In this document: one piece after another, positions 3,531 through 17,168 of the stretch
Layout of the letters: every line of letters begins with the position of its first letter
How positions within the stretch are numbered: the stretch's first letter is position 1
Assembly: GCA_951406725.2 (NCBI GenBank)
Contig: OX597831.1
Coordinates: 59,210,001 to 59,274,000, forward strand
Reading direction: 5' to 3'
From: Octopus vulgaris
Lineage: Eukaryota
Length of the DNA: 64,000 nucleotides
The notes under the pieces: model-generated
The model's database searches: none
Told to the model about the DNA's origin: nothing
The model's input: the letters and a program-made list of their open reading frames with translations, nothing else
Position numbers and translations under genes: made by a program

Positions 3531-4018
3531 TTGTGCAAGATTTTTTATGTGAAGTCGTGTGTTGAAACAGATATTGTTATATTTCGGAATGGTCATATTG
3601 CCAGTTTAGCCAATAAAAACACACGCACTATATATTTGGTGTTATTTTTTGCTTCAGTGATATTTATTTTTTACATTAATCTTAATCTTATTTCGGCCAA
3701 AGTTCTTTCGTCACACTCCTGTGACCGCATCAGTGGTCCTTTGTTTTCTTCTCACTTACTTGTGTCTCTCCTTACTAACCGTCAGCCATTTTGTATTTCT
3801 ATTGTCTGACGGTTAGTAAGGAGAGACACAAGTAAGTGAGAAGAAAACAAAGGATCACTGATGCGGTCACAGGAGTGTGACGAAAGAACTTTGGCCGAAA
3901 TAAGATTAAGATTAATGTAAAAAATAAATATCACTGAAGCAAAATAACACCAAATATATAGTGCGTGTGTTTTTATTGGCTAAACTGGCAATATGACCAT
4001 TCCGAAATATAACAATAT
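3531..4018. mobile_element. Penelope-type pLTR-like repeat (family F) forming a 215-bp inverted repeat, with an HHR-like motif in each arm
   Basis: Arms 3571-3785 and 3806-4018 are near-perfect reverse complements with a 20-nt spacer; CTGATGC-G-GTCAC..GTGAC-GAA motif. Confidence 0.65.
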
Positions 4019-4284: not shown

Positions 4285-5450
4285 ATGTGTGTATGTATGG
4301 ATACATGTGTTTATGTATGTACGTATGCATGTACGTACATACGCCTGTGTATGCATGTATGTATGTATGTATGTATATATGTATGTGTGTGTATATGCAC
4401 GCGCATACACTCTATAAACATAAAGCTATAAACCTGTAGCGATGGATAGATGTAGAGTGACCACTCATCACAATACTATCAAATTTCAACTTCCTCCGGC
4501 CGAAGCTTGGAAGTGATTTACGACCCTTACTCCCAAAACTATACCCTAAAACCTATTATCAGATCTTTATCTCTATATCACAGAACTTTTGTTTTACTAT
4601 TGTGCGTATGTATGTATGTATGTGCGTATGTATGTATGTATGTATGTATGTATGCGTGTATGTATGTGTGTATGTACATACGTACGCATGCGCGTATGCA
4701 TGTATACGCACACGTATGCGTGTGCCCATGTATGTGTGTGCGTACATGTACGTGCGTATGTACCTGTGTATGCCCATACGTAGGTATGTATGTATGTTTG
4801 TACTCATGTGCTACGTATGTATGTGAGTGTCTAGGAGAATGGGCAGACGTGTCTGTGAGAGTGTGTACATGTGTATGTGTATGTGAACGTATGTCCGTGT
4901 ACTGGCATGTAACGATAACAGGAGATTTCACGGAGTAATGTTCGTTGACGCCACACCTAAGAACGAGCTAAGTAAGGCATTCAAGAAAATCCTGCGCACT
5001 ACGGGCCTAAAAATTAAAGTTGTAGAAAAGACAGGTAGGACAATCAAATCGGCTTTATGCAGATCATATCCATTTGTCAAAGTAATAGTGCAGTATGTTC
5101 GACAAATCCACATGTAAATTGTAAAACCAAGGGCACTGTATTCCAGATTAAGTGCCAGGAGGGAGCTTGCGCGACTAACCTAGAGTCATACATAGGTGAG
5201 ACTTCTAGAAGCATCAATGATAGGTTCAAAGCTTCGGCCGGAGGAAGTTGAAATTTGATAGTATTGTGATGAGTGGTCACTCTACATCTATCCATCGCTA
5301 CAGGTTTATAGCTTTATGTTTATAGAGTGTATGTGCGTGCATATACACACACATACATATATACATACATACATACATACATGCATACACAGGCGTATGT
5401 ACGTACATGTATACGTACATACATACACACATGTATCCATACATACACAC
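4285..5450. repeat. ~225-bp inverted repeats (4285-4508 and 5229-5450) flanking the GIY-YIG fragment
   Basis: Reverse-complement identity with about 3 mismatches, including the degenerate microsatellite part. Confidence 0.9.
4925..5230 (+). mobile_element. Penelope-like element fragment: Cys-rich linker and GIY-YIG endonuclease N-terminus (frameshifted)
   Basis: VMFVDATPKNELSKAFKKILRTTGLKIKVVEKTGRTIKSAL / NCKTKGTVFQIKC..YIGETSRSINDRFK. Confidence 0.8.
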
Positions 5451-5721
5451 ATTGTTATTGGTTGTTATTATTGTTATTGTTGTCTGTAAGGGAGGTAACT
5501 GTTTAGGTTTTGGGTGGGGAAAAATATGTGTACAGAAAGGAGACCGGTTTTAAAAAAAGGGGGCCTTGTTTAGTAGGGGATTTATGTACAGTGATGTAAT
5601 ATGTAAGAATATAAAAATTGGTTATGCGTGCTTATTCAGACGGGTTTTGTATTTTTCAATGAAAAAGTTTCTTTATTTAAGCAAGTGTGCGTATATTTCG
5701 TTATATATTTTTGAAAATGAA

Positions 5722-9202: not shown

Positions 9203-10737
9203 TAAATAAACTTAGATAAACTTAGATATGTTTCGACCAAAGATTGGTCCAGGCCATGTCTAACTTAATAGCACCACCTGATAGGATTATTCGAATATTG
9301 TTTAAGTCAAGTTTTGTTTAAGTCAAGTTTTGTTTTGTTCAAGTAGTGAGTTCTTGTTGGGTTGAGTTGTATCAAGTTTTGTTCAAGTAGTGAGTTCTTG
9401 TTGGGTGAGTTGTATCCAATTATGGGTGGCTTATCTGGTATTCTTTGAAGGAATCTATCCACACTCCGTTTAAAGTTGATGGGATCCTTTTCCTCTTTGA
9501 TCTCCCTCGGGACAATATTAAATAGGGCAGGGCCTGTTGAGGAAAATAAATTATGTTGCAGTGTACATGTATGTTGTGATCTTGAATTGGGCAGGGACGT
9601 ATGGCCCGTGGTCCCAGTCTTAGATGAACCTTGAAGCTAATGTTAAGGTCGTTTGGGCAAAGTTGGCGGTATATTCTCCACATCGTACAGATGATGTACC
9701 GCTCACGGTGACGCTGGAGGGAGTAAAGTTTCAAGGCTTTAAGGCGATCCCAATAATCGAGAGCAGCCATGCCTTCAATTCGTTTAGTGAGTGCCCTCTG
9801 GGGTGACTCAATTCTGGAGATGTTTTGTCTTGTATGGGGAGACCACATTGGGCAGCAGTATTCAAGGTGTGGCCGTACAAAGGAGGAAAAAAGTGGTATG
9901 ATGACACCTTGTTCTCTGGACCGGAAAGTTCTTAAGATCCAGGAAGTCATCCTACGAGCTATATCGACCTTCTTGTTGATGTGTGCACTCCAACTGAGAT
10001 CGTCATCAACAATTACACCCAGGTCTCTGATATTGTTAGAGGCTGTGAGCGGTTCCCCTGAAGGAAGAGAGTATGGTTGTTTTAGTGAGGAATTTCTTCC
10101 AAAATGCATCAGCTCAAATTTTCCCTCATTCAGTTTCATTTTGTTTCTGTCTGCCCATTGACTCACAGCATATAGATCAGACTGGAGTTGAGTTCGGTCT
10201 GCTTCTTCATTGACGATTTGCTGGAGCTTAGTGTCATCAGCAAATATTTTCTCTTTGCAGTAATGTACGACACTGGAAAGGTCGTTTATGTAAATTATGA
10301 AGAGTAGCGGACCCAAAACAGTCCCCTGGGGAACACCGCTGGTGACTTCTACTGAGCTTGAGTGGACTTCATCAACCAGGAAATACTTAATCCAGTGTAG
10401 AACTTATCCACGGATTCCAACATTTGCCAATTTTGAGAGTAGGATATTATGGTCTACCCTGTCGAGCGCTTTACTGAAATCAAGGTATATGATGTCAGAG
10501 TTCGAACCTGTTCCCAAGGCTTTGAGTACATCTTCAATGTGATGTAAGAGCTGTGTTAGACAGCCCCTGCCACAGCGAAAGCCATGCTGATTTGCATTTA
10601 GGAGTTTGTGGGTCTCCAGGAAGTCAGCTATCCTTGATCTTACCACTCTTTCAAACACTTTAATGATGTGGGAGGTGAGTGAGATTGGGCGATAGTTGAC
10701 TGCGAGGGATCTGTTTCCCTGTTTGAAAACCGGGATA
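9203..10737 (-). mobile_element. 5'-truncated CR1-type (Jockey group) LINE: reverse transcriptase pseudogene and 3' UTR
   Basis: NYRPISLTS, QHGF, YLDFSKALDRVDH, SGVPQGTVLGPLLFIIYIND, FADDTK, RDLGV, VRPHLEYC; 3' stem-loop GACCAA-TCT-TTGGTC and (ATCTAAGTTT)2 tail; in-frame stop and deletion near 10380-10405. Confidence 0.92.
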
Positions 10738-13904: not shown

Positions 13905-14485
13905 TTTCTCATTTCAGTTGCCTCAACTTCTGGAGCGACATTAGTGAAAGGTATGGTCGAGCACTCTTCTGAAGTGTGATTGGTCCTCTTCTGTTGTCCA
14001 GTCATGGACGGATTAGTAGCGGTTTTTCTTTTATTTTGACAATTTCATGGCAACATGTTTTAACAGTAATGGTTTTTCCGGATTTTAAATAGTTATAACG
14101 GAAAAATCCAGCAGTACACCACCAAACAGTCACCATAACTTTCTTTTTGAAGTGCTCTGCTTTATGGAAGGTTTCCGGTGCTTCATTTTGATCCAGCCAC
14201 TGCGAAGAACGTTTGATATTATTGTACAGCATCCACTTTTCATCGGAAGTTAAAATACAATCGAGAAATGGATCGGTCAATGTACGGAGGAGAAGCGATA
14301 CGCAAATTACATATCTGCGCATTTTCTGAATTTCATTCAAATCGTGTGTTACTCATTTGTCCAGCATTTTTTTGATTTTCCATTACTATGCAAATGGTTT
14401 CAGTCAGTTTTCTGGCTAACGTGAAGGAATGTTGCTAGTTCTCGGGTGGTTTTACGTGGATCTTTCTCAATGACGGTTTTGAATT
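13905..14485 (-). mobile_element. mariner transposase pseudogene fragment
   Basis: DPRKTTRELA...FLDCILTSDEKWMLYNN...KKVMVTVWW...KSGKTIT...SARP. Confidence 0.9.
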
Positions 14486-14846: not shown

Positions 14847-14917
<71 letters not shown>

Positions 14918-14922
<5 letters not shown>

Positions 14923-15126
14923 TTGTATACTGTCAACATAACGTGACAGTCCCGTAAGGGAATTACACCACCGCTGTTTAGCCCTAGGACGTATCGACGC
15001 TTCCTGTCGGCTTTGACAAATTTCCTGTGTCCTTATAATTGCGAAGGGGAGGCAAGCACCCCCACCAACTAGGATTCACACCTGAAGACATGCCTGTTTC
15101 TGGGTCTTACCCGTCATCAGTCCAGG
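14918..15126 (-). repeat. HHR-bearing direct repeat, copy 1 (retrozyme/pLTR-like)
   Basis: Roughly 85-90% identical by eye to 16968-17168. Confidence 0.85.
15081..15126 (-). ncRNA. Minimal type-I hammerhead ribozyme
   Basis: cctgga-CTGATGA-CGGGT(aag)ACCCA-GAA-ACAGGCATGT-C-ttcagg; predicted GUC cleavage between 15087 and 15086. Confidence 0.75.
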
Positions 15127-15140
15127 ATAGTGAGCCCTGC

Positions 15141-16832
15141 TTGTTAAAATCTTTATTATAGGCACAATGGCCAGAATGAAGAGGGGGCATAACAATACAA
15201 TACAGGACATGGGGTACATATAACACAAATACAGAAAGGATGATATGAAATGAAATATTAATAATGAATTAAATGAAATTGCTTACGAGCCCCCCAAAGC
15301 TCACAGTTTCATTTACAATTACAGTTGTACTATCTGGGGTGTTCGTCAGTAATGTAAACGAGTAATTCATCCTGTTCTATAACGCCGGGAAAACTGTCAT
15401 ATCGAACGTAGTGCGCTATGCACGCAGCTGTATTTGAAAACAAATTTATTAATTTATTTACCTTCTTTTATCCACAATTGCAGCCTTTATTTGGTTATCG
15501 TATATCATCGGGTTCAATTTCACTCTCGTTAGATTTTTCATTATCGCTAATTTTTTCTCAATTTCTTTATCCTTTTTGTACAACATTACAGCTTTGAGAT
15601 TTTTTCCTTTCGGTCTTCCTCCTTCCTTGCATGTTTTCAGACATTCTTCCTCTTTTGTTGACCATTTATTCGTTTCATCCCACGTTGAACCTTCACTCAC
15701 TTTAGTTGCTGTATCTCTCCCTTCGTGCGTTCGAGCCTCCGTCTCGTCGACAGACTTCTCTTTAGTTTATTTCTTTTTCTGGTCTTTGGGTGGTGATTCC
15801 ACCCGTGTTCGCTTTCTATCCTCTTTTTCTTCCGTTCTTTCCTTTTCTTCCTCCTTCACCAACTCGTCGCCACATTCCACATTATCTGTTGTCACGATTT
15901 CTTCTTCCGCTTGCAATTCCACATTCTCCTTTTAAAACTCCTCTGTCAAATCCCCCATTCCTTCCTCCAGTGTTATCCTCTTCTCTTGTATTTCTCTTTG
16001 AGGACACACATCCTTCATGCTCCCTCGGCTCTTACATTTATAACACATTGGAGGTCTCTCCTCCACCACGACTCTCAGTCGTGTCTCGTCGGGGAACGCC
16101 AACTCCTCCGGGATGTTATAGAAATCTGGCATTGCCATGTGGACTGAAGCTTGCACCGCATAACCCCACCAGTTTACTCCATTCGACCCCTCCACCCCAA
16201 GTATATCCACGCTGTCCTTGCAGTTGCACATCACTGCAGCTACCATTTTTCGGTATCAAGTTCCGGTGGGATTCCGCTTATTCGCATCCTCACTGCTCCT
16301 CTTCCACAATAACCAGGAAGCAAAACCCATTTTTCCGATCTCAACACTGTCGCTGCGCTCCTCCTCGCTTCGTCTTCATTTTCAAAACGAACGTCCACCG
16401 TAGCGCATTTTCCACCTCTACTGCAGAAGGCAGTTCTTCCTTCAACTTCCTGCAAACACTTCCCAATCTCCTCCACCTCTGCTACTTCTATTCTCCTTGA
16501 GACCACATTCCATGTTCTGTATGTTATGGTTCCCCTCTCCGCCCCTTTCAGTTCGTCCTCAGGTGGCGCAACCCTCAGACAGTCTCCTTCCTTCTTGAAG
16601 CCGTCGAAGCACTTCCTCAAACTTCCCTTCTCGACAACCACTTCTTCCAACTGTAATTCGTTCGCAGCCAGGCCCTTGCCTGCCGCTCCCGCATACGTTT
16701 GGGCTTGCATACCCAACAAAAGATCCAACAATTCAACACGACGCAACAGTTACCAACAACAACAATCAATAAATCCAACTCACAACCGAAAATCCGACAA
16801 CCTGACACAAACACTTCCAAGTAGCGAGACCT
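15141..16832 (-). mobile_element. ORF1-only (gag-like) non-LTR cassette resembling Tx1/L1 ORF1, with 5' UTR and 3' UTR; no RT
   Basis: GT-rich 5' leader, ORF1 remnant, 3' UTR with AATAAA at 15152-15157. Confidence 0.6.
15458..16710 (-). pseudogene. Tx1/L1-type ORF1 (RRM-like region, CCHC-type zinc knuckle, E/K-rich tail), with one frameshift and two in-frame stops
   Basis: MQAQTYAGAAG...VDVRFENEDEARR...VRMRISGIPPELD / NIPEELAF..RVVVEERPPM-CYKCKSRGSMKDVC (CX2CX4[H>S]X4C). Confidence 0.7.
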
Positions 16833-16967
16833 GATAGTTGAGATGCCTGCCCAGCCTTCGTAAATATATATATATTTACAGTGAAATCTATTCACTGGTC
16901 ACCGTAATTAGAAATACTGAATTTCTAAATGTCTCAAAGAGACATGAGCGGTGGTAGAGCGATAGAG

Positions 16968-17168
16968 AGGTGGTATACTGTCACCGTTACGTGACAGTCC
17001 CGTAAGGGAATTACTCACTGCTGTTTAGCCCTAGGAAGCATCGACGCTTCCTGTCAGCTTTGACACATTTCTTGTGTTCTTATATTTGCGAAGGGGAGGC
17101 AAGCACCCACACCAGCTAGGATTCACACCTGAAAGACATGCATGTTTCTGGGTCTTACCCATCATCAG
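16968..17168 (-). repeat. HHR-bearing direct repeat, copy 2
   Basis: Direct repeat of 14918-15120; its minus-strand 5' end is truncated by the TA/TACA microsatellite at the HHR core. Confidence 0.85.
17128..17168 (-). ncRNA. Hammerhead ribozyme motif lacking the 5' arm of stem I
   Basis: CTGATGA-TGGGT(aag)ACCCA-GAA-ACATGCATGT-C; perfect palindromic stem III. Confidence 0.65.

Follow-up and report, generated by a model that had tools for sequence, protein, structure and literature searches.

An ORF1-only LINE nested in a hammerhead repeat of Octopus vulgaris, likely at the repeat's snRNA-type start

Two hammerhead-bearing repeats flank a broken ORF1

The window, a 64,000-nucleotide stretch of Octopus vulgaris contig OX597831.1, harbors two direct repeats (14918-15126 and 16968-17168) that are ~90% identical to each other, in agreement with an original prediction made from the letters of this DNA. 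Homology of the upstream repeat extends beyond the limits given there, on to 16822, as part of a 352-bp unit (Table 1). A minus-strand CUGAUGA core, a stem II of GGGU/ACCC, the GAAA and a GUC site are seen in both repeats, and the predicted cleavage residues could be located in each, with 2048 nt between the putative cuts. As had been noticed before, the upstream hammerhead has lost the 5' arm of stem I, the copy starting directly at the core.

In a table of 57 hammerhead motifs, which includes a few false ones and for which 4 of 6 stem I pairs were required (so that its pairing counts are partly circular), the stem III palindrome CAUGCAUG is present in 26. The palindromic or near-palindromic stem III noticed earlier is a property of the family; in the downstream window copy, a U-to-G change breaks the palindrome. 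The hammerhead consensus at positions 10.1/11.1 is G-C. Neither window copy has this pair, the downstream one displaying C.A and the upstream one U-A; the atypical C.A recurs in 30 of the 57 motifs. An Rfam search found no hammerhead in the window at E<=1, and neither copy folded better than shuffled sequences (z 0.95 and 0.31). Because these two approaches give no independent support, the assignment relies on the letters of the core together with stem changes that compensate each other when families are compared: an A-U pair of stem I is replaced by G-C within the family, and sister families have wholly different paired stems. The unit hammerheads are presumed to self-cleave; the window copies of both, and of the ORF, are damaged.

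The ORF between the repeats begins with the ATG at 16710 and comprises ~460 codons, interrupted by frameshifts near 16248 and 15463 and by stops at 15932-15934 and 15767-15769. Neither an endonuclease (EN) nor a reverse transcriptase (RT) was found between the repeats, and the 3' UTR contains AATAAA; the lack of RT and the AATAAA agree with the prediction.

Table 1 Features of the nested elements in the window
Feature	Positions	Strand	Remarks
Upstream unit copy (352-bp hammerhead unit), its 5' truncation falling at the ribozyme core	16822-17168	-	Core, body, stem-loop, tail, promoter-like region, +1
Hammerhead 1	17120-17168	-	Core 17168-17162; putative cleavage C 17135; stem I 5' arm missing
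PSE-like motif (CAGTG)	16888-16899	-	58 nt upstream of TSD start; putative promoter function
5' TSD copy	16822-16839	-	14/18 identical to 3' copy; starts with the probable +1 of the unit
ORF1-only non-autonomous LINE module	15150-16818	-	5' UTR, ORF1, 3' UTR ending in AATAAAGA plus a few bases; sharp ends common to many loci
Broken ORF1	15312-16710	-	RRM, RRM-like domain, CCHC knuckle (~16045-16000), charged tail; 2 frameshifts, 2 stops; domains taken from natural unbroken copies
3' TSD copy	15128-15145	-	
Hammerhead 2	15078-15128	-	6-bp stem I; core 15120-15114; putative cleavage C 15087; broken stem III palindrome
Downstream unit copy	14918-15145	-	Stops at the first of two 3' ends that recur among unit copies; (TC)n(TA)n follows
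(TA)n/(GA)n microsatellite	14848-14917		At 3' junction

A (TA)n tract also adjoins the 5' side of the element, from 17171, and a repeat search of the whole window was dominated by microsatellites. Elsewhere on the minus strand lie a Mariner-type transposase fragment (14005-14352; Pfam Transposase_1, E 1e-17) and a broken RT fragment (10389-10697) that is 31% identical to the ORF2 of the partner LINE described below, at a position unrelated to the nested element. Two pairs of young inverted repeats are also present, at 4285-4512 and 5225-5452 (228 nt at 98%) and at 3617-3788 and 3803-3974 (172 nt at 92%, with a 14-nt spacer).

The 352-bp unit is an element of its own

A genome search with the repeat returned 2102 first-look candidates. 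The ORF module is absent from 24 of the 29 best-matching other unit loci; in such empty loci, for example L003, the repeat is followed by ~135 nt and then directly by the next hammerhead, giving a period of 352 bp. By this comparison, the two repeats of the window follow one another as copies of a non-coding hammerhead unit of 352 bp. Since most of these loci lack the ORF, the proposal that its protein is the ribonucleoprotein component of a retrozyme is not supported; it is best read as a passenger rather than as the ribozyme repeat's own gene.

The unit occurs as dispersed partial tandems of 1.1-1.9 copies. Its insertions end at two fixed 3' points ~55 nt apart (18/29 and 11/29), adjoin (TA)n or (TC)n in 15/29 cases and include inverted parts in 8/29. 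A type I hammerhead in each head-to-tail repeat of 150-450 bp characterizes retrozymes, and the unit shows this arrangement, with the atypical pair at 10.1/11.1. Partial tandem or inverted insertions, a preference for (TA)n and two 3' ends, as expected of sequences mobilized by Penelope-like elements (PLEs), are found as well. Tandem or inverted insertion and a (TA)n bias are described as PLE traits (PMC8557442), and a Penelope-like RT used two adjacent internal start points in vitro, separated by a 'tail' (PMC11167929); because the two 3' ends, the (TA)n tracts and the inversions match these descriptions, we read the footprints of the unit as PLE-type. Animal retrozymes have been argued to be non-autonomous PLE derivatives (bioRxiv 10.64898/2026.07.22.740005). 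No autonomous PLE sharing sequence with the unit was present in 30 of 6136 GIY-YIG candidate loci or in 326 other loci.

An abundant PLE with 781-aa frames (L166, L168, L171, L178 and L185) has a 3' end that joins (TA)n and bears a hammerhead-like motif of the U3-A8 kind, whose CAUG stem III is also that of one unit family. At least five further hammerhead unit families (L134, L136, L192, L195, L197, L201, L204, L207 and L208) display the core variants UUGACGA, UUGAUAA and CCGAUGA and different paired stems.

Assembled RNA contigs cover unit and module with far lower depth over the 5' half of the hammerhead, contig depth being unable to show ends or levels; nothing in the analysis revealed a trace of a 2.05-kb circle. 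Back-junction reads are not diagnostic of a circle, ligation at the GUC regenerating the genomic hammerhead sequence.

The module has its own ends and target site duplications

The 1.67-kb module is flanked in the window by an 18-bp target site duplication (TSD) of unit sequence just 5' of the hammerhead. A genome protein search with ORF1 gave 12363 first-look candidates, many of them with open frames of 450-480 aa. Modules are often stacked head to tail at ~1.8-kb spacing, with no hammerhead between them, and also occur without hammerheads at unrelated sites with TSDs of their own. ORF copies at unrelated loci without hammerhead flanks are the very observation that had been named as speaking against a coding retrozyme.

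A census independent of hammerheads took the first 100 of 229 overlapping matches to the module 3' end, which collapse into 72 distinct ends located on C1-C7; excluded from these were 3 matches due to chance and 32 ends from other families, in which only the last 40-130 nt are shared. Of the 23 full-length copies in the window's clade, 20 are flanked by a TSD, and a hammerhead lies directly downstream in 17 of the 23 by script and in 20 or 21 by eye. The truncated or interrupted class shrank from 49 script rows to 14 ends at 13 loci after exclusions; six of these loci have a flush TSD of 12-20 bp (two in units, four elsewhere), five are composites of module and unit, and two are unclassifiable. 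L086, considered as a TSD-bearing insertion, was rejected as a composite with template jumps.

The module has a single ORF homologous to a LINE ORF1, no ORF2 before an AATAAA-type 3' end, TSDs (20/23 full-length copies) and TSD-bearing 5'-truncated copies (6/13). A tblastn search of the window and L031-L127 with the ORF2 of the partner LINE gave no match inside an intact module, the one match at L088 lying within an inserted piece. On these features the module is an ORF1-only (HAL1-like) non-autonomous LINE, a second element separate from the unit. The whole 2.25-kb composite does not behave as a retrozyme, whose interior would always lie between two hammerheads without ends of its own: the module has its own TSDs and hammerhead-free copies. 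In a tree of 49 unit bodies, weakly resolved with 4 starred branches of 46, the 23 filled units are scattered among the 26 empty ones (14 changes versus 16.4-16.8 in shuffled data).

The 32 excluded ends (among L287-L356) represent further families, several of them ORF1-only at 30-38% identity and many directly 5' of hammerheads. Stacks of up to seven ORF1-only modules from families 30-70% alike were seen at L128-L131, L135 and L140-L146, ~25-30 nt behind the TATA boxes of two repeats, one of which has CCAAT boxes. At L038/L050 (C10:65.406-65.411 Mb), three modules are stacked at one unit site, the middle one showing an internal deletion of ~130 bp that joins 5' and 3' ends.

ORF1 encodes a selected RRM and zinc-knuckle protein

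The original prediction of a decayed RRM and zinc-knuckle ORF agrees with the broken window copy and with a natural unbroken copy. Pfam gave nothing above cut-off for the pieces of the window ORF; the unbroken copy scores above the cut-off for zf-CCHC, and its structure model (pLDDT 84) displays an RRM (Z 9.4, rmsd 2.3, 78 aligned) and a second RRM-like domain, with tandem-RRM proteins as best matches. Its look-alikes in the Atlas are proteins with ZCCHC3-type RNA-binding domains (score 0.90). By sequence, the zinc knuckle was the one part of ORF1 matched among solved structures; a word-index protein search found no relative, and a full HMMER search found 487 at E<=0.001. These features are those of a type I LINE ORF1p, in agreement with the Tx1 group (PMC5203782).

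An ORF1-only cassette had been proposed, and this part of the prediction is real: ORF1 is under purifying selection, with dN/dS of 0.21, 0.15 and 0.12 in bins of rising dS (dS>0.3) among 34 unbroken copies. At dS<0.1 the ratio is 0.65; all these values come from stop-free copies only.

An autonomous L1/Tx1-type LINE uses the same site

Within one module stack lay an element whose ORF1 precedes an endonuclease; the genome yielded 611 first-look candidates for it. Intact copies of its ORF2 are 1134-1140 aa long and contain Exo_endo_phos, RVT_1 and zf-RVT domains; the best solved-structure match is human L1 ORF2p (E 7e-63), and the nearest named relative is from Argonauta hians. [quoted passage not shown] The element ends in TAATAAAGA, resembling the 3' end of the module. 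A direct autonomous parent of the module did not emerge: module ORF1 is only 27-31% identical to the ORF1 of this element, and the nearest autonomous ORF1 found sits on a separate long branch.

In hammerheads of several families, the autonomous element is inserted immediately 5' of the core, with TSDs of 14-21 bp and stacked with modules. This use of the same site by an EN/RT-bearing relative, together with the module's own TSDs and its copies away from hammerheads, speaks against the earlier view that the hammerheads delimit the element. The autonomous LINE also sits at +1 to +14 of U2 snRNA genes, where L198 (6623-6816) and L199-L200 (C3:20.81-20.84 Mb) hold full-length copies at +1 with a 14-bp TSD, including one tandem pair. 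A second autonomous LINE family, with an ORF2 42-56% identical to that of L207, is stacked at a hammerhead unit at L343.

CAGT[GC] lies 55-59 nt upstream of +1 in 15/15 distinct U1 and 14/16 distinct U2 upstream regions, one more U2 region being occupied by the autonomous element; the CAGTG of the window unit is at a corresponding 58 nt from the TSD start. Within a preset window 54-68 nt upstream, the motif is present at 24 of 55 insertion sites, a set that includes TATA-type sites and some mis-called rows, versus 4.8% of random positions. Some module stacks begin ~25-30 nt behind a TATA box. Some off-site copies (L047 and L198) carry an extra 5' piece resembling the start of the unit, as expected if their RNA began there. 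The insertion spot in the unit is likely a snRNA-type transcription start site, and insertion at about +1 would entail promoter capture. The upstream regions of U6 (6 of 12 loci parsed) shared no promoter and look like pseudogenes. An empty unit has no T run over 3. About 28 U1 snRNA genes are clustered at C18:48.97-49.21 Mb, on the same contig as the window.

Module and unit are sometimes copied together

Among the 13 module copies that are truncated or interrupted, five arose by joint copying with the unit, starting at the unit's 3' end and leaving Penelope-like footprints. These copies (L313, L314, L317, L328 and L352 of the census), as well as L073, L089, L122 and L126, begin inside the module, have neither a TSD nor an upstream unit, and run through the hammerhead to one of the unit's two 3' ends; some lie in (TA)n or contain inversions. 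The copied part of the module reaches 1425 nt at L313. L317 differs in form, its forward copy stopping earlier and its inverted copy reaching the end. Because these copies cross the hammerhead to the unit's 3' ends, we infer that a module-plus-unit RNA, uncut or re-ligated at the hammerhead, was copied by the unit's machinery. The joint mobility implied by the earlier proposal is supported as one-piece retrotransposition from the unit's 3' end; a 2.05-kb circle running from hammerhead to hammerhead is improbable.

The upstream unit's own +1 site is empty at all five near-family loci that reach back to it (L032, L039, L055, L058 and L093); L132 has a filled site, occupied by a module of another lineage. 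Empty upstream sites argue against rolling copies of a composite circle and are compatible with a linear read-through RNA; a circle is not required for the composite copies. Target choice is not strict: TSD-bearing truncated copies are on target in 2/6 cases versus 20-21/23 for full-length copies (Fisher p 0.008-0.018), a full-length share that may be inflated by hitchhiking. More upstream unit sequence is kept at filled than at empty loci (median 177 nt, n=15, versus 66 nt, n=25; p 3e-5), reflecting either a need for the whole promoter or hitchhiking by many full-length copies, made from read-through RNA.

Discussion

We consider it very probable that the locus consists of two nested elements, an ORF1-only non-autonomous LINE with its TSD lying within a non-coding hammerhead repeat of 352 bp, at what is probably the snRNA-type start of that repeat. 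The copy in the window is a dead one: an L1/Tx1-type element reduced to ORF1 within a retrozyme of the PLE type. Such an element resembles HAL1 placed in a Tx1-style target, with hitchhiking as an additional route.

In the mechanism we propose, a Penelope-like RT/GIY-YIG enzyme would start at either of two fixed 3' points and place 1.1-1.9 copies of the unit in (TA)n tracts; the footprints of this step are visible. ORF2 of an autonomous L1/Tx1-type element would then use target-primed reverse transcription to insert the module near +1 of the unit, as the TSDs and the shared site suggest; the module would thereby gain a promoter and supply its own ORF1p in cis. Finally, RNA that starts in the module, crosses a hammerhead left uncut or ligated again, and reaches the 3' end of the unit could be copied by the unit's machinery, so that the module hitchhikes, as other copies demonstrate. 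The start site, a circle, hammerhead cleavage and both enzymes are conjectural in this scheme, and the borrowing of RT in trans that was suggested earlier gains support as the presumed arrangement. Since the upstream unit stops at the core, the route taken in the window is unreadable from its sequence; insertion by the LINE machinery into an existing 1.6-mer is the more probable origin, with hitchhiking a lesser but substantial possibility.

The principal rival is a coding retrozyme, in which the 2.05-kb hammerhead-to-hammerhead RNA is the replicon, circularized, encoding its own ribonucleoprotein component and copied by a Penelope-like RT. The composite copies that cross the hammerhead into the module, the location of 20-21 of the 23 full-length copies within units and the purifying selection on ORF1 are all in keeping with it. 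Rolling circle copies would, however, show a filled upstream +1 site, and all five informative loci show an empty one, while the single filled site holds another module lineage. Modules with their own TSDs, stacks without hammerheads, and insertions at unrelated and TATA-type sites also oppose it, and in the in vitro experiments reported in PMC11167929, hammerhead cleavage was not needed by the PLE, uncut RNA being the main substrate. We therefore regard a coding retrozyme as improbable. Still less credible, to the point of being nearly dismissed, is a degenerate PLE of pLTR-ORF-pLTR layout with a gag-like upstream ORF that has lost its RT/EN, as in Chlamys-2_cBra. Its pLTR-like geometry, (TA)n flanks and minimal hammerheads would suit, and a PLE combining a 3' hammerhead with a zf-CCHC ORF upstream is on record (PMC8557442), but the ORF has its homologue in the ORF1 of an APE-type LINE found at the same site, the module is bounded by a TSD, and the window lacks PLE protein similarity.

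A different question, compatible with the nested elements, is whether the site is chosen through the hammerhead sequence or its flanks, or through pairing of the RNA end with the target, the promoter link being incidental. A hammerhead motif lies within 95 nt of 44 of the 72 module-type 3' ends, off-target TSDs often start with 3-4 bases like the unit's target, and TSD starts vary from ~+1 to +10 between subfamilies, all of which would fit such recognition. Target sequences, however, have little in common from one unit family to the next, although their distance from the upstream motif is conserved, and the U2 +1 and TATA-type sites lack any hammerhead; we hold this alternative to be possible but rather unlikely. 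Returning to the nested elements, one may go further and suppose a LINE lineage that finds its targets via the Pol II start complex at promoters of the snRNA and TATA types, with ORF1-only offspring riding two unrelated RTs and, once within a retrozyme, yielding a composite RNA that is cut by both hammerheads, circularized and copied by the Penelope enzyme as a facultative protein-coding retrozyme. This extended model is speculative and, taken as a whole, unlikely.

Every part of this nested system is of a known kind, and the combination is what is new. Non-autonomous LINEs with ORF1 only are exemplified by HAL1, HeT-A and Ag-Sponge, from the L1, Jockey and CR1 clades (PMC5786205), and the module resembles them in having one ORF1-type protein, no EN/RT, a LINE-type 3' end, TSDs, 5' truncation and a selected ORF. 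Unlike them, it has a type I ORF1 (RRM and CCHC) related to that of an L1/Tx1-type partner, strongly prefers start-site-like positions in other repeats and is also copied by a second, Penelope-like machinery. Target-preferring LINEs of the Tx1 clade include Tx1L in Tx1D, Keno in U2 genes, and the crocodilian Tx1-Mar with SINEU in Mariner-N4 (PMC4494074). Here too, an APE-RT LINE and a non-autonomous partner share a site in another repeat, stack and gain snRNA-like 5' pieces, whereas the octopus targets are hammerhead retrozyme units and base +1 of U2. For SINEU-3, truncated copies argued against hitchhiking (PMC4494074); for the octopus module, both independent insertion and hitchhiking are seen.

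The 352-bp unit shares with animal non-LTR retrozymes its type I hammerhead, palindromic stem III, size of 150-450 bp and PLE-like behaviour (PMC7229834; bioRxiv 10.64898/2026.07.22.740005), and its likely snRNA-type promoter resembles the one reported for newt satellite 2 (cited in PMC2220036). It differs from them in that the loci examined hold scattered 1-2-mers instead of long arrays, in the atypical C.A at 10.1/11.1, and in carrying a protein-coding passenger, retrozymes being described as non-coding. Partial tandem and inverted insertions, (TA)n targets and two 3' ends separated by a 'tail' are shared with hammerhead pLTR PLEs (PMC4209133, PMC8557442, PMC11167929), but the unit is without an RT/GIY-YIG ORF. 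A literature search, which covered sources other than Repbase and subscription journals, returned no paper combining retrozymes with Tx1 and nothing on this target class.

If LINE targets have in common a position relative to a promoter, and not a sequence, the L1/Tx1 group would acquire a targeting rule that is new to it. That the same RNA leaves both LINE-type and Penelope-type footprints shows one way in which a non-coding retrozyme can acquire and disseminate a protein gene, and module insertions mark a likely start site for animal retrozymes. Intact ORF2 copies of the autonomous LINE exist at L207 and L204.
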